Program-made: the position numbers and the translations under genes
Part shown: positions 3 to 20,733 of the stretch, in pieces
Layout: every line of letters begins with the position of its first letter
Position numbering within the stretch: the stretch's first letter is position 1
The notes under the pieces: model-generated
Told to the model about the DNA's origin: nothing
What the model saw: the letters and a program-made list of their open reading frames with translations, nothing else
Databases searched by the model: none
Virus record (IMG/VR): IMGVR_UViG_3300024232_000069
Location: 1 to 24,611 of that record
Direction: 5' to 3' (one strand)
DNA: 24,611 nucleotides
Origin: a virus
Taxonomy: Duplodnaviria > Caudoviricetes

Positions 3-1475
3 ACGATCAAGGCAGCGCGCACAGCTGACTCGTTTCAGAACTTTATGTTTAACCTGGGCGTTGGTACGGATAACCCGACAAGCTCAGCGACCTATGGTTT
101 CAACCCGATCACGCGTACGCATACGCTACTCGAATGGATCCATCGAGGTTCATGGATTGGCGGCGTAGCGGTTGATCTGGTTGGCGATGATATGACGCGG
201 GCGGGGGTTGACTTTGTTTCAACAATGCAACCAGATGATGCCGAGCAACTGCAATCCGCCATCATGCGCCTCGGGATCTGGGAAGCCACTAACGATACAG
301 TTAAGTGGTCGCGTTTGTATGGCGGCTGCATCGCTGTCGCACTGATCGATGGACAGAACACTGAAACGCCATTGCGCATCGATACGGTTGGCAAAAACCA
401 ATTCAAAGGACTGATGGTTTTAGATCGCTGGATGGTAGACCCAACGCTCGAGGATCTCATTTCAGACTTCGGCCCGCAGCTTGGGCAGCCTAAATACTAC
501 CGTGTTAATACGGGAGCACCAGCGCTCAGGGGCTCGAAGGTCCACTATAGCAGGTGCATACGGTTGGAGGGCATACGCCTTCCCTACTGGCAGCGCATGG
601 CCGAGAACCTGTGGGGCCTATCGGTACTCGAGCGCTTGTATGATCGATTGATAGCGTTTGATAGCGCGACGCAGGGCGCCTCGCAACTCGTTTATCGGTC
701 ATATCTGCGCACGATCAAAGTTAAGGATCTCCGCGAGGGGATCGCAGCGGGCACTGAAGCGCAAGGCGGGATCTCGCGTTACTTTGATATGATGCGCCGT
801 TTTCAGGGGATTGAAGGCGTCACGCTTATCGATGCCGAGGACGACTTTCAAGCGCAATCGCATACAGCGTTTGGCGGGCTGTCAGACGCCTTGATCCAAT
901 TCGGACAGCAATTGTCAGGCGCTTTGCAAATCCCGCTGGTGCGACTGTTCGGACAGTCTCCCGCCGGGCTTAACAGTTCTGGCGACTCAGACCTACGCAC
1001 TTACTATGACGGGATTAAGCAACAGCAAGAGCGCACGCTGAGAGTGCCCTATGACTGGTTGTTTAGGGTGATCGCGCGCAGTGAAAGTATCAAGCTGCCA
1101 GAGAACTTTAACTTCGAGTTCAAGTCGTTGTATCAGCTAACGCCCGATCAGAAAGCGACAGTCGCGCAAACGCGTGGTGGCATCATCTTGCAGGCAGCTG
1201 TTGATGCGATCATTCCACGTTCGACCGCTTTGAAAGAACTGCGTCAGGTTGGACATGAAACAGGGACATTCACTAACATCACCGACGAGGACATCAAAGC
1301 AGCCGAGGATGAACCATTGCCGGGCAGCATCGAGGCGATGCAGCAACAGCAAGAGATGTTCGGTCAGCCCGGTGTCGCCCCTGAGAACAATCAACCCCAA
1401 GAGGGCATGGGCGGCGATCTCCCCGGGGAGCAAGAGCAACGTAGCGCGCAGCCGAGCTTGCGGAGGGTTGTTTAA
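3..1475 (+). CDS. Portal protein (DUF1073 family), 5'-truncated at window edge
   Basis: Frame stays open upstream of ATG45 (TIKAARTADSFQNFMFNLG), so the true start is outside the window. Motifs typical of DUF1073 portals (WSRLYGG, VLDRW, VHYSR, WGLSVL, IPLVRLFGQSPAGLNSSGDSDLRTYYD). First gene of a head operon. Confidence 0.9.
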   Translation, partial: TIKAARTADSFQNFMFNLGVGTDNPTSSATYGFNPITRTHTLLEWIHRGSWIGGVAVDLVGDDMTRAGVDFVSTMQPDDAEQLQSAIMRLGIWEATNDTVKWSRLYGGCIAVALIDGQNTETPLRIDTVGKNQFKGLMVLDRWMVDPTLEDLISDFGPQLGQPKYYRVNTGAPALRGSKVHYSRCIRLEGIRLPYWQRMAENLWGLSVLERLYDRLIAFDSATQGASQLVYRSYLRTIKVKDLREGIAAGTEAQGGISRYFDMMRRFQGIEGVTLIDAEDDFQAQSHTAFGGLSDALIQFGQQLSGALQIPLVRLFGQSPAGLNSSGDSDLRTYYDGIKQQQERTLRVPYDWLFRVIARSESIKLPENFNFEFKSLYQLTPDQKATVAQTRGGIILQAAVDAIIPRSTALKELRQVGHETGTFTNITDEDIKAAEDEPLPGSIEAMQQQQEMFGQPGVAPENNQPQEGMGGDLPGEQEQRSAQPSLRRVV

Positions 1476-1876
1476 TGAAACGCGTCACTCATATCCACGT
1501 GCATGATTACGGCGTGCCCGGTATGAAGAAGGGGCAGCATAAACAGGAGCCCGCGCACCCATCATCCGGGCACGCCATGTCATATGCTATTATGTCCGGC
1601 GCATTGAGTAAGCAGCACGAGCTACTTAAACGGCATAACGAACGGCTTGCCGCCGCTTCTAAAGCCAAGGCGGCTGGGTTCAAACCCGACCATCCCGACG
1701 GACCCTACGCGCCCCCGGCGTATCATCATAAGGTTGCCGCATCGCCAACCTCTTACACGCCCGAACAGCGCAAGCATTCGCATGAATATCATACAGCCCA
1801 AGGGGCACGACGCAAGGGTGAGGTTGGCGAAGCGCATCGTGCCGCCGCGGCAGCGATCAAGCCGCATCTTGAATAA
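1475..1876 (+). CDS. His-rich basic protein, candidate internal head protein
   Basis: 133 aa, coupled by TAATG overlaps to both the portal and the head morphogenesis gene. N-terminus MKRVTHIHVHDYGVPGMKKG. Function inferred. Confidence 0.65.
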   Translation: MKRVTHIHVHDYGVPGMKKGQHKQEPAHPSSGHAMSYAIMSGALSKQHELLKRHNERLAAASKAKAAGFKPDHPDGPYAPPAYHHKVAASPTSYTPEQRKHSHEYHTAQGARRKGEVGEAHRAAAAAIKPHLE

Positions 1877-3818: not shown

Positions 3819-4022
3819 TTAGAGGCAGAAGCCGTGCGTCAATGTCTCGGGGCTCGCTGCGTCCAGGCTCTCGAAGCAGGATAGCAGATGAAAGAGGTTG
3901 TGATACTCATGCTCTGTGCTATCGTAGCGCTCGCGATGTGCTCGCTCTATGTCGGGGTTGTCGCGCAGTAGCTCTGTTAAAAGCTCGACCTGAGCTTGTG
4001 ACAACATGATTTGGTAAGCCAT
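3819..4022 (-). CDS. Hypothetical protein
   Basis: AAGGGAG RBS before ATG (MAYQIMLSQAQVELL...HGFCL), 67 aa, directly downstream of the 4028-4384 ORF. Confidence 0.65.
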   Translation of the reverse strand: MAYQIMLSQAQVELLTELLRDNPDIERAHRERYDSTEHEYHNLFHLLSCFESLDAASPETLTHGFCL

Positions 4023-4027
4023 ATCGA

Positions 4028-4384
4028 TTACTCCCTTGGGACGAGGCGCAACATGTCGCGCGTTACATAGCTCTCGCCGAGATTGTAAAAGGTCATGTAT
4101 TGGTTCGGCGGCCGTTGATAGCAGGACAGCGCCGCCTTGAATGGTGTATCGACCTTGTTCCATGTGACGCGCGTTGAGTAGAGCTTGCCGTTCTCGTCAC
4201 GTAGCACGATCGCCCAGAACGTGTCCTTACCTGTGATGGTATGTCCTGGCGCGAGGTTGACCCTTGGCATCGCGAACTCGTCGGGAATGGACTCCACGCA
4301 GCGATATCCGCAATCAGCGCAAACGTCGTCTGGCATCGGGCACCTGGCTATCGACGGCCGAATGTTGATTATGGCGCGTGCCAT
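4028..4384 (-). CDS. Hypothetical protein with N-terminal Cys cluster (CPMPDDVCADCGYRC)
   Basis: GGAG 8 nt before ATG4384 (MARAIINIRP...); alternative ATG at 4390. Confidence 0.65.
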   Translation of the reverse strand: MARAIINIRPSIARCPMPDDVCADCGYRCVESIPDEFAMPRVNLAPGHTITGKDTFWAIVLRDENGKLYSTRVTWNKVDTPFKAALSCYQRPPNQYMTFYNLGESYVTRDMLRLVPRE

Positions 4385-4403
4385 GTTCATAGCTCCAAAA
4401 TGA

Positions 4404-4435
4404 GAGATCGCGCTAGAGCATACCAGCGCGATCTC
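4404..4435 (-). promoter_or_regulatory. Intergenic stem-loop (stability, processing or attenuation)
   Basis: GAGATCGCGCT...AGCGCGATCTC, an 11-bp perfect stem (13 bp with a G.U pair on the minus strand), just upstream of the RBS of the 4384 ORF. Confidence 0.5.
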
Positions 4436-4446
4436 GGGTTGAGCGC

Positions 4447-4878
4447 TCAGCGCTTGCAAACGGTGGGGATGGCGAAGGGCAGACCTCTGCGGCGCAAGCT
4501 TGTTTCGTAGCCCGCGGTCTTGACCTGGAGCTTCGGGTGAGCGATTGGCGCGCGCATTTGATCGCAGAGATACGGACCGTTGGTATGCGCGAGCTTGCCG
4601 ACCTCGGTCTGGCTCTCAGGGATCATGGTCACGCGTGACCACTTGATCTTGTAGGACGGATCGACAGCGCGGATAGCGGCTGCGATCATGCGGCCGTTCT
4701 CGTAGCTCTTTTGGCAAACAACGTCGGCGGTCTCGTAATCGTGCGGGAAGGGCTTGCCCTGGTTGCCATCAAGCTGGCCGCGCCGAAACCAGGATATCCG
4801 CGCCATCCACTCTTGGGTGACGGGTCCGGGCTGGAGGCTCACGCTTTTAGCGAAGCTATTGATAATGCGTTCTGACAT
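4447..4878 (-). CDS. Hypothetical protein
   Basis: GAGGA RBS then ATG4878 (MSERIINSFAK...), 143 aa, behind promoter cassette 1. Confidence 0.7.
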   Translation of the reverse strand: MSERIINSFAKSVSLQPGPVTQEWMARISWFRRGQLDGNQGKPFPHDYETADVVCQKSYENGRMIAAAIRAVDPSYKIKWSRVTMIPESQTEVGKLAHTNGPYLCDQMRAPIAHPKLQVKTAGYETSLRRRGLPFAIPTVCKR

Positions 4879-4888
4879 GGTGAAAGTG

Positions 4889-4958
4889 TCCTCTTTGTTC
4901 GCGCGTTCTCGCGCAAGCGCTTGATAGGTGAGTGGGGCCGCTCTCGCAAGCATAAAAA
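4889..4958 (-). promoter_or_regulatory. Promoter / stem-loop / RBS cassette 1
   Basis: TTTTT-ATGC-TTGCGA-N17-TATCAA-GCGCTT-GCGCG(AGAA)CGCGC-GAACAAA-GAGGA. Confidence 0.7.
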
Positions 4959-4973
4959 GCGGCCCGGATCAGA

Positions 4974-5198
4974 TTATTCTTCGTCGTCGTATTCGTGGGT
5001 GCAGGTATCGAAGGTCTCGGTGACCTGAGTGCGCAATGCTGCGACCGCTCGGTGCATCTCGGCATGGTCCGCGAACTCATACATGCCGGTCTGGCGGTCA
5101 GCACCCGCGACCTCGTAATCGTAGTTCGCTGCGGGCCAGAGTTCGTCAGCGATAGCGGCGAGTCCGGCGGGAAGGGTAACAAGGTAGCGAATCGTCAT
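4974..5198 (-). CDS. Hypothetical protein with acidic C-terminus
   Basis: AGGAG RBS, 74 aa, ends HEYDDEE; behind cassette 2. Confidence 0.7.
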   Translation of the reverse strand: MTIRYLVTLPAGLAAIADELWPAANYDYEVAGADRQTGMYEFADHAEMHRAVAALRTQVTETFDTCTHEYDDEE

Positions 5199-5205
5199 TG
5201 AAGTT

Positions 5206-5274
5206 CTCCTGTTGTGCAGCGCTCTCGCTGCGAGCGCTTTATCTCATATACGCACCAACTTAGCAAGCACAAAA
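5206..5274 (-). promoter_or_regulatory. Promoter / stem-loop / RBS cassette 2
   Basis: TTTT-GTGC-TTGCTA-N17-GATAAA-GCGCTC-GCAGCG(AGAG)CGCTGC-ACAAC-AGGAG. Confidence 0.7.
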
Positions 5275-5321
5275 TTGTTGCTCAGTCGGCGAGGTCCTTG
5301 TTGCTAGAGGGGTAGGGGGGC

Positions 5322-5519
5322 TCAGCGCTTAGCGCGCTGAGCGATGTTAGCGGCTCGCGCAGCGCGCTCGGCAGCGAGCCGTAAGCGGTTGCGCAAGCGG
5401 GTTTCTTGGATCTCGGAGAGTTCGTCCCCTCGGCAGGGGGCGTGCGGAATGGCTCCGCAGTAAGGGCAGGTGGCGTAGGGATCTTGTACGTTGGGGTCGA
5501 TGTCGCAAGGCGTGGTCAT
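5322..5519 (-). CDS. Small zinc-finger-like protein
   Basis: GAGGA RBS, ATG5519, 65 aa; CPYCGAIPHAPC followed by an Arg/Ala-rich helix; behind cassette 3. Confidence 0.7.
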   Translation of the reverse strand: MTTPCDIDPNVQDPYATCPYCGAIPHAPCRGDELSEIQETRLRNRLRLAAERAARAANIAQRAKR

Positions 5520-5527
5520 CGTAGGGG

Positions 5528-5592
5528 TCCTCTTGGTTGCTCTCAACAAAGCGAGATATCGGTCATTCTGGTGCTTGTTGCAAGCGAAAAAA
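5528..5592 (-). promoter_or_regulatory. Promoter / stem-loop / RBS cassette 3
   Basis: TTTTTT-CGC-TTGCAA-N17-GATATC-TCGCTTT-GTTG(AGAG)CAAC-CAA-GAGGA. Confidence 0.7.
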
Positions 5593-5620
5593 GCCGCTCT
5601 TGGCAAAAAAGGTTACGCGG

Positions 5621-9276: not shown

Positions 9277-9831
9277 ATGAGTGCGACCTCCGCGACGTTC
9301 AGGGCGACGTTTCCGGAATTCAGCGATACGGTTAAGTATCCAAACGCGACCATTAACTTCTATCTACAGTTGGCTTACCTTGTGATGCCGCCCGCTCGCT
9401 GGGGCACCTTGCTCGATTATGGTGCGCAGCTATATGCAGCGCACAACATAGCCATCGAGGCTAAGGCGCAGCAAGAGGCGGCGGCGGGCGGCATCCCTGG
9501 TTCAACAACAGGACCAACAACCTCGCGTTCAGCGGGGCCAGTTAGCTATTCAACCGATGTTTCAGTCGCTGCGGAGCAAGGGGCTGGCTACTGGAACCTG
9601 ACAACTTATGGCATGCGGATCTACCGTTTAATTAAACTTGTTGGTATCGGCGGCATTCAACTTGGCGTGCCTTATGGCTATCCGTACGGGGGATGGTTTA
9701 CCGTGCCGACGCAGGTGCAGATTCAAGATGTTGTTTCATTTCTGAACACGCCCGTACTTGATGCAGCCGAAGGACAAACAATCCCGCCGGCCCCTGGAAC
9801 AGCTGACGGACAGCTACTCGAGGAGTGTTAA
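9277..9831 (+). CDS. Head-tail adaptor (DUF4054 family) with C-terminal extension
   Basis: FRATFPEFSD..YP, LYAAHNI, VSYS, YWNLTTYG, GIGGIQL. Confidence 0.87.
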   Translation: MSATSATFRATFPEFSDTVKYPNATINFYLQLAYLVMPPARWGTLLDYGAQLYAAHNIAIEAKAQQEAAAGGIPGSTTGPTTSRSAGPVSYSTDVSVAAEQGAGYWNLTTYGMRIYRLIKLVGIGGIQLGVPYGYPYGGWFTVPTQVQIQDVVSFLNTPVLDAAEGQTIPPAPGTADGQLLEEC

Positions 9832-9832
9832 G

Positions 9833-10408
9833 ATGTCAGGCTCAAATGTTTTAACAACGATTGAACTTCAAGTTGATTCTAATGGCAATCGCCGCAAGTT
9901 TTATGCGACGTGGGATGGCAATGCTTATGCGCTTTGCCAGGTACCCTTTGTTAACGGATTTCCTGTTACTAGTGCGATGCCTAATCCCGTTTCAGATCGG
10001 GCGCTTGGGCTCCCCGACGACATCGTTTGGCCGGGTACGGGTGATGGTAATGTTATCGGCATCTTAAAAGCGATCCAAGCTGCGATCGCCGATATTCAAG
10101 TGAGCACAGTTGTTCCCCCGATGACCTACCATGGTCCTTATTCTGGCTCGGTACAAACAGCTTCCGGGCTCTTGATCCCGCACGGTGCGTATTCAAGATC
10201 GCTCGTTATTCAAACTTTCCCTAACAGTTTAACCAACGTCTGGTTAAACCCAGGTGGGGGGCAAGCCTTCCCTAACCAGGGTATCATGGTGCAGGCTGCT
10301 GGCGGCTCTGTTTCCTTTGGCTCGGCGCAATTCCCCATTCCGACCAATGATATCATGGCGATTACCGATGGTGCTGGTCCACAGAACGTGCTAATTGTGG
10401 GAGGTTAA
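9833..10408 (+). CDS. Putative fibre / spike base structural protein
   Basis: GAGGAG RBS, ATG9833, 191 aa; G.P.D..W.G.GDG.VI.ILKAI segment and a C-terminal small beta-sandwich; no signal peptide. Confidence 0.65.
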   Translation: MSGSNVLTTIELQVDSNGNRRKFYATWDGNAYALCQVPFVNGFPVTSAMPNPVSDRALGLPDDIVWPGTGDGNVIGILKAIQAAIADIQVSTVVPPMTYHGPYSGSVQTASGLLIPHGAYSRSLVIQTFPNSLTNVWLNPGGGQAFPNQGIMVQAAGGSVSFGSAQFPIPTNDIMAITDGAGPQNVLIVGG

Positions 10409-10412
10409 AACA

Positions 10413-11894
10413 ATGCGGCGCTTGCTCGCGGCGACATCCGCCCTAACTTTGCTTTCAACCATCGCGTTCGCGCAACCAGCTCCGCCCCGCCCGCAGCCAC
10501 CGCAAGTGCTCTGGGGGCAAGCGGGTAATTGGAGCGCTACGCAGATATTCAACTCGACCTCTGGTGGTAACTTTAATTACCCAAATGTTGGCATGGGTAC
10601 TGCTTCAAATCCTGTTATGGTTTATGATCCAACGGGCGAGGTTTATATTAATTCAGTCTTTTCGAAGGTGCAACTGACAACGGGCGACAACAACAAAGAG
10701 ATGCTTGCCTTTATCTCGCAATTCTACATTGACCCCACGATCTACAATTATGGTCAGAACTCCCATAACTCAGCGGGCTACTTTTTCGCGCACGGAGCTA
10801 ACAAACTAGCGCTCGCGAACTGTACACAAGGTGTTAATTGTCCGGGCTCGATATATGCGATAACAGGGTTGGTCGCTGGTGCTTCAAACGATGGCACTGG
10901 TCCGGCGCGTAATGCTTATACCTTTGTGATCCATGCGCCTGATGTCCCGCCAACTGGTGGGTCGCTCGATTACTGGACGGGTATAGTTTTTCAAACGCCG
11001 CTCGGCGGTAAGGAAGCCTCTGCTTTCGCTGGAATCACGACGGCTAACGACGTGCCGAATGGTTTTGGCACCATTAACCCAATGGCGAATGTGCACGCGC
11101 GCGTTATCAATAGCACCGGTACCGCGACGGCGACCATCAATGGCAACGTTCTGACGTTAATGAGTAGACCAACGAACCCTTATGGCATCACACCGGCTTG
11201 CGATGTAAGCGGGGCGGGGGTTTCAGCGGGCAGCAAAGTTTATGGCTCGCAGCCATCCGATGGTTCCTATCCGATGTTGAACGTCACGCCCTCGCAGACC
11301 CTCGCGACGCCAACCTTGCTAACTTTCAATTGTAACCCATATCCCCTGATTATTCAGAGCTTTTATAACGCGGACCTTAACTTTATCTCGCAGAGCGGGG
11401 GCAACGTTCCGAATGCCACGATCTCCGCCCGCTTCGATGCTAACTCCTCGCACTTGCACTTCTTGTTAGGTGGTACAACAAGCGTTGTCATGGGCAAGAA
11501 TACTAGCGGGGGGCGCATCGGTATTGGCAATCTGGATACTTATCCGAACTTCACAGTTGATGCGGGAGGCGTTGTCGCTGCTTGGGGACCGGTTAGTCAG
11601 GGTCCGCGTTTCACGACCGATGGCGGGTGCGCTGAGGGATCGCGCGCTGGTGGTGCCTCGGCTGGCCGATTTGTCGTCGCTGCGTCAGCGCAATGTTCGG
11701 TTGTCGTAACCATGGCGGGCGGCGCGGCGCAGAACGCAGCGATTACGGAATGGGGCCATTGTGGTATAAATAACCGCACGCACCCCGGCGCGGCGAATGC
11801 CTTTGCGCTCACAGCAGCTACCGCGACAACCGCGACGTTCTCTGGAGTTCCTGTTAGTGGAGATACACTTGACTTTGCATGTACCGGCTTCTAA
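10413..11894 (+). CDS. Fibre/adhesin-like protein with Sec signal peptide
   Basis: GGAGG RBS, ATG10413; MRRLLAATSALTLLSTIAFA|Q; beta-rich in G/N/T/A; fibre-like GRIGIGN..PNFTVDAGG; 8 Cys in the mature part. Confidence 0.75.
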   Translation: MRRLLAATSALTLLSTIAFAQPAPPRPQPPQVLWGQAGNWSATQIFNSTSGGNFNYPNVGMGTASNPVMVYDPTGEVYINSVFSKVQLTTGDNNKEMLAFISQFYIDPTIYNYGQNSHNSAGYFFAHGANKLALANCTQGVNCPGSIYAITGLVAGASNDGTGPARNAYTFVIHAPDVPPTGGSLDYWTGIVFQTPLGGKEASAFAGITTANDVPNGFGTINPMANVHARVINSTGTATATINGNVLTLMSRPTNPYGITPACDVSGAGVSAGSKVYGSQPSDGSYPMLNVTPSQTLATPTLLTFNCNPYPLIIQSFYNADLNFISQSGGNVPNATISARFDANSSHLHFLLGGTTSVVMGKNTSGGRIGIGNLDTYPNFTVDAGGVVAAWGPVSQGPRFTTDGGCAEGSRAGGASAGRFVVAASAQCSVVVTMAGGAAQNAAITEWGHCGINNRTHPGAANAFALTAATATTATFSGVPVSGDTLDFACTGF

Positions 11895-12261
11895 AGCCCT
11901 TGCGTTATTGTTGCTTTTTACTCCCTGCACCGCGCGAGCGCAGCAACAGCAACCAGCACCATCTCAACAGCCGCCTCCGATCCCCGCGGCGATTCAAGCT
12001 TTGATCGATCTCCGCAAGGAAGCGGAGGACCGCGCCGCTTTTGCGATGCAGCGCGTTTACGTGCTACAGGAGCAAGTGAACAATATCACCAAAACGCCGA
12101 CTAAAGAAGTCGAAGAATTGAAACAGAATGTTAAGACCTTGGAGCGGGAAATCGAAAGTCTGAAGGCGGAGCGGATAGTTGAATCGAAGAACCTCGACGA
12201 TGCGCACGACATCATAACAAAGGGTTCGAATTGCCCCCAACCCTCGCAACCCAAGCCGTAG
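11869..12261 (+). CDS. Exported coiled-coil protein (start uncertain)
   Basis: GGAG 6 nt before TTG11869 (alternative TTG11875); KALALLLLFTPCTARA|QQQQP followed by a heptad-like helix. Confidence 0.65.
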   Translation: MTLHVPASKALALLLLFTPCTARAQQQQPAPSQQPPPIPAAIQALIDLRKEAEDRAAFAMQRVYVLQEQVNNITKTPTKEVEELKQNVKTLEREIESLKAERIVESKNLDDAHDIITKGSNCPQPSQPKP

Positions 12262-12273
12262 GAGTAGCGTTTC

Positions 12274-12528
12274 ATGAAATGGGTTCTAGCGTTAGGTCTC
12301 GCGCTCAGCGCTTCCCCGTGCTACGCGCAGACAGCATCGTGCTGGGATGGCAAGGCGAGGGCGGTTGTCGCTTGTTCCGATAGCCAAAAGGTCACCGTTA
12401 CCGATACTGTCGCCTATCTCGAGAAGCGCTTCAGGGAGATGGAGCAAGAGCTTATCAGCAAGACCACCGAGTTGAAAGCCGAGACCGCGAACGCGGACCT
12501 CGCGCGTGCGGCTTGCGCTAGCAAATAG
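12274..12528 (+). CDS. Small exported coiled-coil protein
   Basis: AGGAG RBS; MKWVLALGLALSASPCYA|Q; C-x10-C pair then a helical region. Confidence 0.75.
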   Translation: MKWVLALGLALSASPCYAQTASCWDGKARAVVACSDSQKVTVTDTVAYLEKRFREMEQELISKTTELKAETANADLARAACASK

Positions 12529-12542
12529 GGAGAGGTCCAGAC

Positions 12543-13994
12543 ATGCGGATTACTAACGCTCTGACGGGGCTAGCAGCGCTGTTGGTCGCCAGCCTGAGCT
12601 ATGCGCAAGCCCCGCCCTCTCCCCCGGCTGCTAGTACCGTCTGCGCGAATACGACGTTAGCTGTTACAGGATCGTCGGCACGCGTCGCGCTGCCGAGCAC
12701 GACAGCGACTTGCAAAGTTGTCACGCTCGTTAATGATGGTACGAGCGAGGTGTTTGTTAAGTTCGGCGATAATACTGTTACAGCGACAACAAACGATATC
12801 CCGATACCGGCTGGTGCCTCGCCCGCTATCTGGACAGCTGGCACATATGTCGCTGCGATCTCAGCGGGGGGCAGCAGCAACCTACGCGTTATACAAGGCA
12901 ATGGTCCGCTCGCGTTCAGAGGCGGTAGTGGCGGTTCAACAGCAGCCGCGATCACTCCGCTGTTTGGCATGGGTTATGATTCAGATTCGGTATGCTCTAG
13001 TACCGTGACGCTCGGTCGTGACATGCACTACCGCAATCTCACCCTCGCAGCTGGATGCAAACTTAACACGGCGAGCTTTCGCATCTTTGTTCAACAGGTG
13101 CTCGATATTTCAAACGCGCCCGTAGGTGCGATCACAAATTGGCAAAACGGTAATAACGCTTCAGGGGCGACAGGTGGTGCCAATACAGGCGCACAAACAG
13201 CACCGCTTCCTGTTTGGGGCCAACCAAACACGGGCGGAACTGGTACGGCGACAGTTGGCGGCAATGGTTCAACAATCGCGGCTGCATCGCTTGGTAATGG
13301 CGGTTCAAGCGGGATACCCGCTACAGGCGGGACATGCTCTAGCGCAGCCGGAACAGTGACAGCGACGCCTGTTGGTGGTACCAACCCTGGTGCAGCGCCG
13401 ATAGGTTTTAACACGATCAATTTAACTTATACCTATTTCATGGGGACCAACGCTAACGTGCAGCCGGTTTGGTTCGGCTTCGCTGGTAATGGCGGTTCAG
13501 CGGGCGGGGGAGACGGAACCGGCGCGGGCGGTGGCGGCGGTAGCGGTGGTCGGCCGACGATGGGCACAGCGATCTACGCTAACGTCATTAACCGCGGGAC
13601 AAATACTAACCAAGGGATTATCTCGGCTCGAGGCGGGGATGGTGGCAAGGGCGGGGATGCTGTTGGCGCTAATGCGTGCGGCGGCGGCGGTGGTGCGGCT
13701 GCGGGCGGCGGATTTGTTTATATAGTTGTTGGCTCATTAGCGGGCTCGCAGATAGTTAACGCGATTGACGTTTCAGGCGGCAAGGGCGGGGATGGCGGCA
13801 ATGGTCTTGGCACAGGGAAAGGCGGCAATGGTGGAGGCGGAGGTCGCACGGGCAATGTGCAGATACTCTTACTCGATCCGCCAGCCCTGCAACCCTCGAG
13901 TTCGTTTAACGTAGCTGGCACAGCGGGCGGGACAACAGCGACGGCAACAGGCGCGACGGGGGGAGCCGGCGCGAGCTTGTTTGTTAACCTGTGA
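12543..13994 (+). CDS. Glycine-rich fibre/spike-like protein with Sec signal peptide
   Basis: GGAGAGG RBS; MRITNALTGLAALLVASLSYA|Q; N-terminal beta-sandwich of about 95 aa, then a Gly-rich (GGxGGxGG) domain; 6 Cys in the mature part. Confidence 0.78.
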   Translation: MRITNALTGLAALLVASLSYAQAPPSPPAASTVCANTTLAVTGSSARVALPSTTATCKVVTLVNDGTSEVFVKFGDNTVTATTNDIPIPAGASPAIWTAGTYVAAISAGGSSNLRVIQGNGPLAFRGGSGGSTAAAITPLFGMGYDSDSVCSSTVTLGRDMHYRNLTLAAGCKLNTASFRIFVQQVLDISNAPVGAITNWQNGNNASGATGGANTGAQTAPLPVWGQPNTGGTGTATVGGNGSTIAAASLGNGGSSGIPATGGTCSSAAGTVTATPVGGTNPGAAPIGFNTINLTYTYFMGTNANVQPVWFGFAGNGGSAGGGDGTGAGGGGGSGGRPTMGTAIYANVINRGTNTNQGIISARGGDGGKGGDAVGANACGGGGGAAAGGGFVYIVVGSLAGSQIVNAIDVSGGKGGDGGNGLGTGKGGNGGGGGRTGNVQILLLDPPALQPSSSFNVAGTAGGTTATATGATGGAGASLFVNL

Positions 13995-14581
13995 GTAAAT
14001 CCTTCGTCCGTATTGAAAAAGATAATGTACCAGATTTAGCCAAGATCCTCGCTGACCTGGCGGATGTGATGGTGCTTGTTGGCATCCCGCAAGAGAACAC
14101 GCGCCGTCCTGGCGAACCCATCACAAATGCCGAGATTGGCTTCATCCATAACTTTGGCGCGCCGGAGGCGAACATCCCGCAGCGTGAGTTCATGGCGCCA
14201 GGAATACATGTGGTTCTCCCGCAGATCACAGACGGGCTGCGCACAGCTGCGCTCGCCGCCCTTGATGGTAATAAGTCTAACATGGAAGGCGCTCTGCACG
14301 CTGTTGGCATCGTCGCAGCGACATCGATCAAGAAAACAATCATCGCTGATATTCCCCCGCCGCTCGCGCCAGCAACAGTCGCGGCGCGCATCGCACGTCG
14401 AAAGTCTCCATCTTGGCGCGCCAAACGGAGGAAGCTTGTCGCGGCGAATGTGGCGGCGAATAAACCGCCCGGGGCTGGGATCTTCACAGCCTTGATCGAT
14501 ACCGCATCGCTTCTCAATTCGATAACGTATGTGATCGAGCGCGTACGCTCTGGTATCAGTACGGTAGCCAGGATGCCTTAA
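13991..14581 (+). CDS. Neck / virion morphogenesis protein
   Basis: GTGA overlap; VLVGIP, NAEIGFIHNFGAPEANIPQREF, PPLAPATV, LIDTASLLNSITYV. Confidence 0.8.
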   Translation: MSKSFVRIEKDNVPDLAKILADLADVMVLVGIPQENTRRPGEPITNAEIGFIHNFGAPEANIPQREFMAPGIHVVLPQITDGLRTAALAALDGNKSNMEGALHAVGIVAATSIKKTIIADIPPPLAPATVAARIARRKSPSWRAKRRKLVAANVAANKPPGAGIFTALIDTASLLNSITYVIERVRSGISTVARMP

Positions 14582-18402: not shown

Positions 18403-18587
18403 AGCTAGCATCGGCGCCAGATGGCGACGATTGGTATTACCGTCCGGTTGAAAGAGGGCTCTGTACTTACACGGAGCTTGTTTATGGTCCGATAACTTTG
18501 TATGATATCGCTGTTATGAATGACATCATCGATTTAACCGAGGAAAATCGTTTACGTTTAGAGGATGCAGCTAATGAGCGGAAGTAG
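18339..18587 (+). CDS. -1 frameshift extension of the tail chaperone (GT-like), missing from the ORF track
   Basis: Slippery heptamer T TTT TTG at 18339-18345. The -1 frame is open to TAG18587 and encodes ...PDGDDWYYRPVERGLCTYTELVYGPITLYDIAVMNDIIDLTEENR. Confidence 0.75.
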   Translation, partial: FFGRTPWVIERKSRSASARSVELASAPDGDDWYYRPVERGLCTYTELVYGPITLYDIAVMNDIIDLTEENRLRLEDAANERK

Positions 18588-20733
18588 TGGATCGTCAAGC
18601 AGCGGAGGCGGTCGGTCCACAATCCGTGACTTCCTCGTAGGACTTGGCGTCCAGGTTAATCAAACCGACATCCGAACATTCGTTTCAGCTGTCGATAGCA
18701 TGACTTTTGCTATCGTGAAATTTGAAACACGCCTCCTTGATCTAGCCGGACAACTTCAGCGTGCGCTAACGCAGGTCGCTGAAGCGCTGGAGCAAATGTA
18801 CTACACGGCTGACCGCGCGAACACGACCGTTTCAAATCTACGCGCGCTGCAATATGGCATGAGCCAAATCGGGCTCAGCGCGCAGGACGCCAACCAAGCA
18901 CTCGAGAGCTTGGCGATGTCCATGCGGATCAACCCTGGCAACGAAAGCTTGCTGCGGTACCTTGGCGTTCAAACCCGAGACATGAAAGGCAATATGCGTG
19001 ACACGTCTCTCGTAATGGGAGACTTTATCGCGCGCTTGAGTAAGATGCCCTTCTTCATCGCTGCGCAGTATGCAGAGATGTTTGGCATCAATGCGCGCAC
19101 CCTTTACATGCTCTTGCAAAACTATAGCGCTTTGCAAAAGGGCGAGGAGCGCCATAAGGATCTGGCGCGCCAGACAGGCGTTGATCTCGACCGCGCGGCT
19201 CGCGTATCGCATGACTTCATGACCGTGATCCGCGAGACCGGTGAAATTGTCTACCTTATGTGGGTTAAGGTTTCAACCGCCTTGATGGAGAAGCTCCGTC
19301 CTGGTTTGGTTGAGGTTAACAAGTGGCTGTTGAAACATGCAAAAGATATCGAGGGCGCCGCGCTTGCTATCGCTGGCATGTTTCAGGGCGTCATCAATGA
19401 TATTGTCGAGATATTTCCCTACATCGATGCGCTCATTAAAAATACGGTTGGTTGGAAAGCCGTATTCGAAGCCATTGGCGTTGTTATTCTATACCGCATC
19501 CTTGGGCCGATTGGCTTGGTCATCGCAGCGCTTGACTATGCTTACAACTTATATAAAGCCTGGAAATCTGATCCAGACAAGTTTATGAAGATCCCTGAGC
19601 ATCCCGAGACGGGCGGCGTTGAGCCTTACGACCCCTTCGACCCAAAGAATGAGGCGCGCTCGCGGGAGTACTGGGCTAAGAAATGGGAAGAGTTTCGCAA
19701 GCGTTATCTGCCCGGCGGTATCGACACGCGAATTCCTGAAGGTCCAGATACTGGCGCCCCGGGCGAAACAACGCCAGCTGAAACAGAGAAATATTATCAG
19801 CGGAGGGCTGAAGAGGCGCGCAAGAAGTGGGAGGAAATGCAGAAGTCCTGGGAGCAGTTTTTCAAAACAAATCCGGCTAACCCTAACCAAGCGATCCCGC
19901 AGAGCGGCACGGGTTTTGATCCATCGATGGTGCATCCCGCTGCCTATACAGTTGGTTCAACCTCTACCGCGAGCCTCGCTACAACCGATCCGCATTTCAT
20001 CGCCCAGGCGATGTTTTTAATCACGGCGATGTCGCGTATGTTGCGCGATGATATCGATTACTTTCTTCGTCAGATGTTTGATGGTTTCAAAGAGTTCATC
20101 CGTTGGGGTGCTAACCCGCAAAGTCAATTCCCGATGCCAATGCCAGGCGTCGCTCTCGCTGACGCGTTTAGTGGCTTGGTTCCGGCTAAGCTTGGCGGAC
20201 TAGATCCCCAGATTGAAGCAGAGGTTCGCCGCCAAGCGCGAGCTAAGGGTCTCGATGAAGAGCATATGGTCAATCTCGCTCGTGCAGAGGGCGGGGGCTT
20301 CGATAACGTATCGCCATCGGGCGCGATTGGCCCCATGCAACTCACGACAGGGACCGCGAACCAGTTAAATGTCGATCCGCATAACTGGATGCAAAACATT
20401 GAAGGGGGCATGCGTTACTTTGCCGAACAACTGAAACGGTTCGGCAGCTATGCGGCCGCGGACGCTGCTTACAATGCGGGTCCAGAGGGGCGCGGGGTCG
20501 CGCTGTTCGCACAAACGGGCGACCCTCGTTCATTGCCACTTGAAACGCAACGTTACATCATGGGAATAAACCGCATACAATCGCATCTTGGCGGGGCGCC
20601 GGTTGTTAATCAGCGCACAGAGATCCACGTACATGGCGGTGAGCCGCATGCGACAGCTAAAGAGGTCTCGCTTCAACAGGACCATGTTAATGCAGCACTT
20701 GTGCGTAATTTTAGAACGGCTGTGATAGCATGA
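18574..20733 (+). CDS. Tape measure protein with C-terminal SLT lytic transglycosylase domain
   Basis: GAGGA before ATG18574; TIRDFLVGLG N-terminus; helical body with a hydrophobic segment; SLT motifs AEGG, GAIGPMQL, NIEGGMRY, AAYNAG. Confidence 0.88.
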   Translation: MSGSSGSSSSGGGRSTIRDFLVGLGVQVNQTDIRTFVSAVDSMTFAIVKFETRLLDLAGQLQRALTQVAEALEQMYYTADRANTTVSNLRALQYGMSQIGLSAQDANQALESLAMSMRINPGNESLLRYLGVQTRDMKGNMRDTSLVMGDFIARLSKMPFFIAAQYAEMFGINARTLYMLLQNYSALQKGEERHKDLARQTGVDLDRAARVSHDFMTVIRETGEIVYLMWVKVSTALMEKLRPGLVEVNKWLLKHAKDIEGAALAIAGMFQGVINDIVEIFPYIDALIKNTVGWKAVFEAIGVVILYRILGPIGLVIAALDYAYNLYKAWKSDPDKFMKIPEHPETGGVEPYDPFDPKNEARSREYWAKKWEEFRKRYLPGGIDTRIPEGPDTGAPGETTPAETEKYYQRRAEEARKKWEEMQKSWEQFFKTNPANPNQAIPQSGTGFDPSMVHPAAYTVGSTSTASLATTDPHFIAQAMFLITAMSRMLRDDIDYFLRQMFDGFKEFIRWGANPQSQFPMPMPGVALADAFSGLVPAKLGGLDPQIEAEVRRQARAKGLDEEHMVNLARAEGGGFDNVSPSGAIGPMQLTTGTANQLNVDPHNWMQNIEGGMRYFAEQLKRFGSYAAADAAYNAGPEGRGVALFAQTGDPRSLPLETQRYIMGINRIQSHLGGAPVVNQRTEIHVHGGEPHATAKEVSLQQDHVNAALVRNFRTAVIA

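Follow-up and report, generated by a model that had tools for sequence, protein, structure and literature searches.

A late-operon cassette of four predicted exported proteins, a candidate head appendage, in an uncultured myophage

Inserted among the virion genes of an uncultured myophage are four consecutive genes (A to D) whose products are predicted to be exported and to fold outside the cytoplasm, as the initial annotation of this DNA had proposed for the periplasm. From sequence, this prediction is well supported by leaders kept in diverged homologues and by even cysteine counts in the leader-bearing members of a jelly-roll family to which gene D belongs. We put at about even the chance that this accessory late-operon cassette encodes four Sec-exported, disulfide-folded proteins that attach to the outside of finished heads at lysis, as an appendage binding the host surface.

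A leader-bearing cassette between adaptor and neck genes

The window, meaning the whole 24.6-kb stretch of DNA analysed here, comes from an uncultured virus record. Its genes cover the head, neck and contractile tail of a myophage as well as some of the baseplate, with Pfam matches to E217, Pam3 and XM1-type proteins. Its tape measure protein (18574-20733) has an SLT lytic transglycosylase domain (Pfam), and the usual tail-fibre site, past the baseplate wedge, falls outside the window. The cassette and its flanks are laid out as follows.

9277..9831, + strand: DUF4054 head-tail adaptor, upstream flank; Pfam PF13262 (E 8e-24), PHROG 302; leaderless
9833..10408, + strand: orf191, 191 aa, first gene of the insert; leaderless; no family match
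10413..11894, + strand: gene A, 493 aa; predicted 20-aa leader at 10413-10472, ending IAFA|Q; 8 mature Cys
11869..12261, + strand: gene B, 130 aa, TTG start; predicted 24-aa leader at 11869-11940, ending TARA|Q; 1 mature Cys
12274..12528, + strand: gene C, 84 aa; predicted 18-aa leader at 12274-12327, ending PCYA|Q; 3 mature Cys
12543..13994, + strand: gene D, 483 aa; predicted 21-aa leader at 12543-12605, ending LSYA|Q
12606..12920, + strand: N-terminal domain of gene D, small jelly-roll; eight-stranded model, family comparison
12939..13994, + strand: C-terminal glycine-rich module of gene D; confident model, homologues fused to fibre anchors
13991..14581, + strand: Neck1/tail-completion gene, downstream flank; PHROG 222 (E 6e-34); leaderless; 4-nt overlap with D

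Four leader genes thus lie on the + strand between the adaptor and Neck1, where they had been annotated, but the interval holds five genes in all, the first (orf191) leaderless. Intergenic gaps from orf191 through A, B, C and D to Neck1 are 4, -26, 12, 14 and -4 nt, and a purine-rich ribosome-binding-like motif is present at every cassette gene. Promoter and terminator scans, a weak test, gave chance-level results only, with no separate promoter-like site; given this and the tight packing, the cassette is likely co-transcribed with the virion genes. GC3 of genes A to D (0.54-0.71) overlaps core-gene values and so gives no sign of recent transfer.

Leaders were called with our own rule-based caller rather than a trained predictor, at a threshold of 4.5 that was fixed after the scores of the window ORFs were known, and Sec, Tat and lipoprotein signals are not told apart by it. 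The caller flagged 4 of the 34 + strand ORFs of the window, namely A, B, C and D, bearing out the earlier remark that no recognised structural gene of the window has such a leader. All four have a basic N-region, a hydrophobic core and small residues at -3 and -1, the rule-based pattern of a Sec/SPI signal. Core structural genes of relatives were flagged at a background rate of 44/1870, and half of these positives (22/44) were major capsid proteins with hydrophobic N-terminal extensions. In an E. coli control, 10 of 40 genes were flagged, comprising nine exported proteins (five by record annotation, four by recall) and one inner-membrane protein. By our own arithmetic, four flagged genes in a row would occur at the background rate with a chance of ~3e-7 per position, indicating that the run is not due to chance. 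In the capsids of L067, L068, L069, L072, L074 and L077, the caller's main source of false positives, a hydrophobic Ala-rich extension that is probably a propeptide precedes an RTRD-like motif.

The leader pattern is kept in the A, B and D families despite sequence drift, as an exported function had been expected to require. The one full-length homologue of A (60% identity) keeps all 8 Cys, and its leader retains the pattern with 7/20 positions identical; both proteins begin M-R-R, so the Tat route may be compatible with A. The leader of B is present only with the TTG 11869 start, inside the 3' end of A, which differs from the start given in the protein collection (GTG 11857); a homologue with 54% identity has a diverged leader and starts at the position matching TTG 11869. 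For C, whose C-terminal half appears helical by eye, we found only a near-identical variant and no diverged homologue. The body of B is coiled-coil-like, with weak coiled-coil matches only, below the cut-off. Both large proteins had been described as fibre- or spike-like; this is supported for D, the C-terminal module of which is common to phage fibres, and remains conjectural for A, which has no recognised fold and an Atlas structure model of low confidence. Searches of PHROGs, Pfam and NCBIfam gave no family match for A, C, D or orf191, and neither A nor D as a single query found related viral loci.

Two other assignments were considered and set aside. B and C were rejected as two-component spanins or lipoproteins: their leaders end in A-x-A|Q, no spanin family matched, and the lipobox reading fails because the leader Cys is preceded by proline, off the lipobox consensus. 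The C-terminal part of orf191 as a leaderless copy of the D jelly-roll was likewise unsupported (jelly-roll profile probability 0.8%).

Two virion-type domains in gene D

The N-terminal domain of D is modelled as an eight-stranded small jelly-roll (pLDDT 95.8). Its family comprises 522 proteins (representatives at 50% identity clustering), in which the domain mostly follows directly after a leader, and a leader was called in 118 of 149 homologues examined. Mature Cys counts in these 118 were even in 100, odd in 6 and zero in 12 (binomial p 4e-23), the parity that oxidative folding predicts; in the other 31 they were even in 13, odd in 7 and zero in 11 (Fisher p 9e-4 versus leader-bearing members). 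Cys positions vary across the family. The domain occurs in fusion with a wide range of unrelated payloads, which reach 1186 aa and include a GDSL esterase. Of 91 members scanned, two, both leader-bearing, have the S74 chaperone of phage spikes at the C-terminus.

Leaderless forms of the jelly-roll are ~100 aa long and lie in phage head or structural modules in 6/6 loci with readable context (L210, L213, L215, L219, L220 and L223), next to terminase, portal, major capsid or prohead protease genes or within a P22-like structural block. The Atlas clusters nearest to the domain consist of 96-104-aa proteins that are 71-100% viral. Sequence searches of the D domains against solved structures gave nothing significant. 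A fold search of the jelly-roll placed Ena (Bacillus endospore appendage) entries at the top, non-significantly and tied with unrelated jelly-rolls, and the spike base of the gene transfer agent RcGTA was absent among the listed fold matches. Neither D nor 12 jelly-roll family members matched NF048002, the model of the RcGTA-type spike base, against which ZHS_8 scores E 8e-20, and the jelly-roll profile compared with the NF048002 profile at a probability of 0.4%.

Residues 301-483 of D are 33% Gly, and the high-confidence model of the C-terminal module has a short beta-strand ladder followed by long ordered stretches devoid of helix or strand, which we infer from the model to be polyglycine II helices. 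The T-even phage protein gp38 is a polyglycine adhesin; no sequence or Foldseek match between D and gp38 was found, and the whole D model had no Foldseek match. Among the best 120 of 164 glycine-rich homologues, 19 of the 119 other than D had a leader and 100 were leaderless, and among 53 aligned members 10 carried an Mtd_N tail-fibre anchor. Of 70 genes in viral contigs that have the glycine-rich motif, one was called leader-bearing and 69 were not; an alignment search of viral loci found one related locus. Leader-bearing members of this family have no Cys parity (9 even, 9 odd), which counts against the disulfide argument.

Leaderless phage fibres, Mtd_N-anchored and others, share the module with D at about 35-48% identity over aligned columns. 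Since this adhesin-type module is elsewhere mostly leaderless and in some members Mtd_N-anchored, the usual cytoplasmic virion anchor appears to have been replaced in D by a leader and a jelly-roll. The leaderless phage counterparts of both D domains support the view that both are virion-type in nature. Viral contigs L090, L099, L114 and L148 each have two separate genes sharing the glycine-rich module motif.

Leader genes in the head-decoration slot of relatives

To place the cassette, we compared the surroundings of related capsid genes in 80 viral and 80 genomic loci. Among the 116 distinct relatives whose loci cover the interval from adaptor to neck, none carried leader genes there, indicating that the cassette is an accessory insert; the closest relative, L001, keeps an orf191 homologue and has a 55-aa hydrophobic ORF in place of the cassette. 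The proposed placement at the virion neck therefore stands as a position between the adaptor and Neck1, but the tie is not conserved, and nothing links the cassette to the neck in particular.

Leader genes are instead found between the MuF and prohead protease genes, where they occur in 22/29 relatives with capsid identity of at least 58% versus 2/79 below, counts that include roughly three positives resembling membrane proteins and from which the gene caller missed some slot genes. Three other slots have almost no leader genes. Cys counts are even in 26 of 32 leader-bearing proteins of the MuF-protease slot, many of which belong to a ~150-aa beta-rich family, mostly with two Cys, encoded directly before the protease (L005, L006, L010, L012, L018, L019, L031, L033, L039, L046 and L224; for example L046:7503-7955). 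This family had no family match, and a search of solved structures returned a weak YomS hit only (E 0.43). The D jelly-roll itself occurs in this slot, with a leader in L005 and L046 and leaderless in L223.

The cultured Edwardsiella phage vB_EpM_ZHS, which a quick tree places in the same well-supported clade as the window's group, has in this slot a leaderless RcGTA-type spike base (E 8e-20; PDB 6tb9), an annotated head fibre and a protein starting MIGLGL, a start that resembles the RcGTA head-fibre N-terminus quoted in PMC7296036. An RcGTA-family base thus occupies the slot that contains leader genes in the window's close relatives. No cultured phage carrying the cassette was found, and the nearest named records are metagenome bins with 58-67% capsid identity. 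Taken together, the comparative sequence evidence points more to the head than to the neck.

The window's own MuF-protease slot contains five or six small, moron-like ORFs on the minus strand (3819-5606), opposing the late operon. Near MuF, window 1475-1876 and L002:4063-4329 encode basic, His-rich small proteins with a THIHVH-like start, and similar motifs are also seen in the protease and among relatives.

A possible periplasmic route to the capsid and its alternatives

In the mechanism that we propose, the cassette would be expressed late and co-transcribed with the head and tail genes, A to D would be exported by the host Sec pathway with cleavage at A|Q, and host Dsb enzymes would form their disulfides in the periplasm. 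Once endolysin and spanins break the envelope, the compartments would mix and the proteins could dock on released particles, probably at the head rather than the neck. The jelly-roll of D would serve as docking base and its glycine-rich module as binding tip; A might be a second adhesin or a shaft, and B and C, at a guess, linkers or periplasmic chaperones. Somewhat more tentatively, we suggest that this represents a second, periplasmic assembly line, in which a small jelly-roll taken over from cytoplasmic head-decoration genes and fitted with a signal peptide forms a plug-in base that brings interchangeable, disulfide-folded adhesins and enzymes onto the capsid at lysis, and that the clade repeatedly swapped leaderless head spikes for exported ones.

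All of the export evidence would fit equally well if the proteins never entered the virion and were late effectors, either soluble or at the cell surface, with an origin in fibre genes, acting for example as receptor-masking or decoy adhesins against adsorption to debris, in a block to superinfection or in binding of the host capsule. The accessory nature of the cassette, the variability of its slot (exemplified by L001) and the fusion of the jelly-roll to unrelated payloads such as the esterase agree with such a role. We nevertheless regard it as unlikely, though worth serious consideration, because leaderless twins of both D domains are genes of phage structural modules and because, in relatives, leader genes are concentrated in the head-decoration slot; the lack of a separate promoter-like site weighs slightly in the same direction. 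The head appendage is favoured over a free effector mainly by the positional swap of a leaderless spike for leader genes in the MuF-protease slot.

Exported jelly-rolls might alternatively polymerise into disulfide-linked, Ena-like fibres of their own, tipped by D or A, that would tether particles or lysing cells to surfaces with no fixed capsid site. The sub-significant Ena matches, the variable Cys positions and the lack of a stand-alone leader-bearing jelly-roll in the window make this improbable. Export itself would be dispensed with if the leaders served assembly at the cytoplasmic face, as membrane anchors or as propeptides that are cleaved off, and A to D were ordinary cytoplasmic appendage proteins. 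Although the calls come from a rule-based caller that related capsid extensions also trip, the tripartite leaders with an A-x-A-like end, their free sequence drift and the strong even-Cys bias tied to the leader render this very improbable. Docking of exported proteins on the head thus remains our preferred reading.

Filamentous phage pIII and pVIII are virion proteins with signal peptides, and pIII domains are disulfide-folded in the periplasm. Filamentous virions form at the membrane, with no lysis, from pIII and pVIII that stay anchored in it, whereas the window phage is tailed and assembled in the cytoplasm. The RcGTA head spike (base Rcc01079 and head fibre Rcc01080; PMC7296036) is similar in having a small jelly-roll base and a flexible adhesin on the head; the D jelly-roll differs in lacking an NF048002 match and in being fused to its own payload, and the main text of PMC7296036 mentions no signal peptide. 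In architecture, the closest likeness in cells is to the Bdellovibrio MAT fibres, which, in the available part of PMC10769870, combine a signal peptide, a conserved ~130-aa beta-rich domain and variable phage-like adhesive tips, some S74-ended, but are chromosomal and belong to the predatory cell surface rather than to phage late genes. The Agrobacterium myophages Milano and 7-7-1 have disulfide-rich collars, decoration proteins and capsid fibres, and their core proteins are cross-linked; the main texts (PMC10491603, PMC12796354) refer to neither a signal peptide nor a periplasmic step. The core of the window phage is mostly Cys-poor (capsid 0, neck 0, sheath 2), and its leaders are on accessory genes only. 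According to the available part of PMC13576161, which does not mention signal peptides, phages likely use host DsbA or spontaneous oxidation for structural disulfides.

In titles and the opening lines of abstracts, a search mostly outside subscription journals, we found no account of a tailed phage whose virion appendage proteins are exported, and annotation tables may hold unremarked cases. As far as this literature goes, the export route is undescribed, and the phage appendage modules that it uses are known. The accepted view is that tailed virions are finished in the cytoplasm by the time of lysis. If exported proteins are added afterwards, phages could use host oxidative folding to obtain stable adhesins, and host recognition would be partly set at or after lysis. 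Such a route would also account for the large, unnamed jelly-roll family and for the presence of leader genes among the head genes of most close relatives. Should the proteins stay off the particle, they would still form an undescribed class of secreted, adhesin-like phage effectors.

Two further features of these loci are recorded here. Runs of leader-bearing, Cys-rich genes occur outside both examined slots at L029:14215-19035 and L040:558-3274. The 184-aa adaptor (9277-9831) has a C-terminal extension relative to its distant relatives, which measure 124-134 aa, and most close relatives are 145-195 aa long; the extension could be a docking arm.
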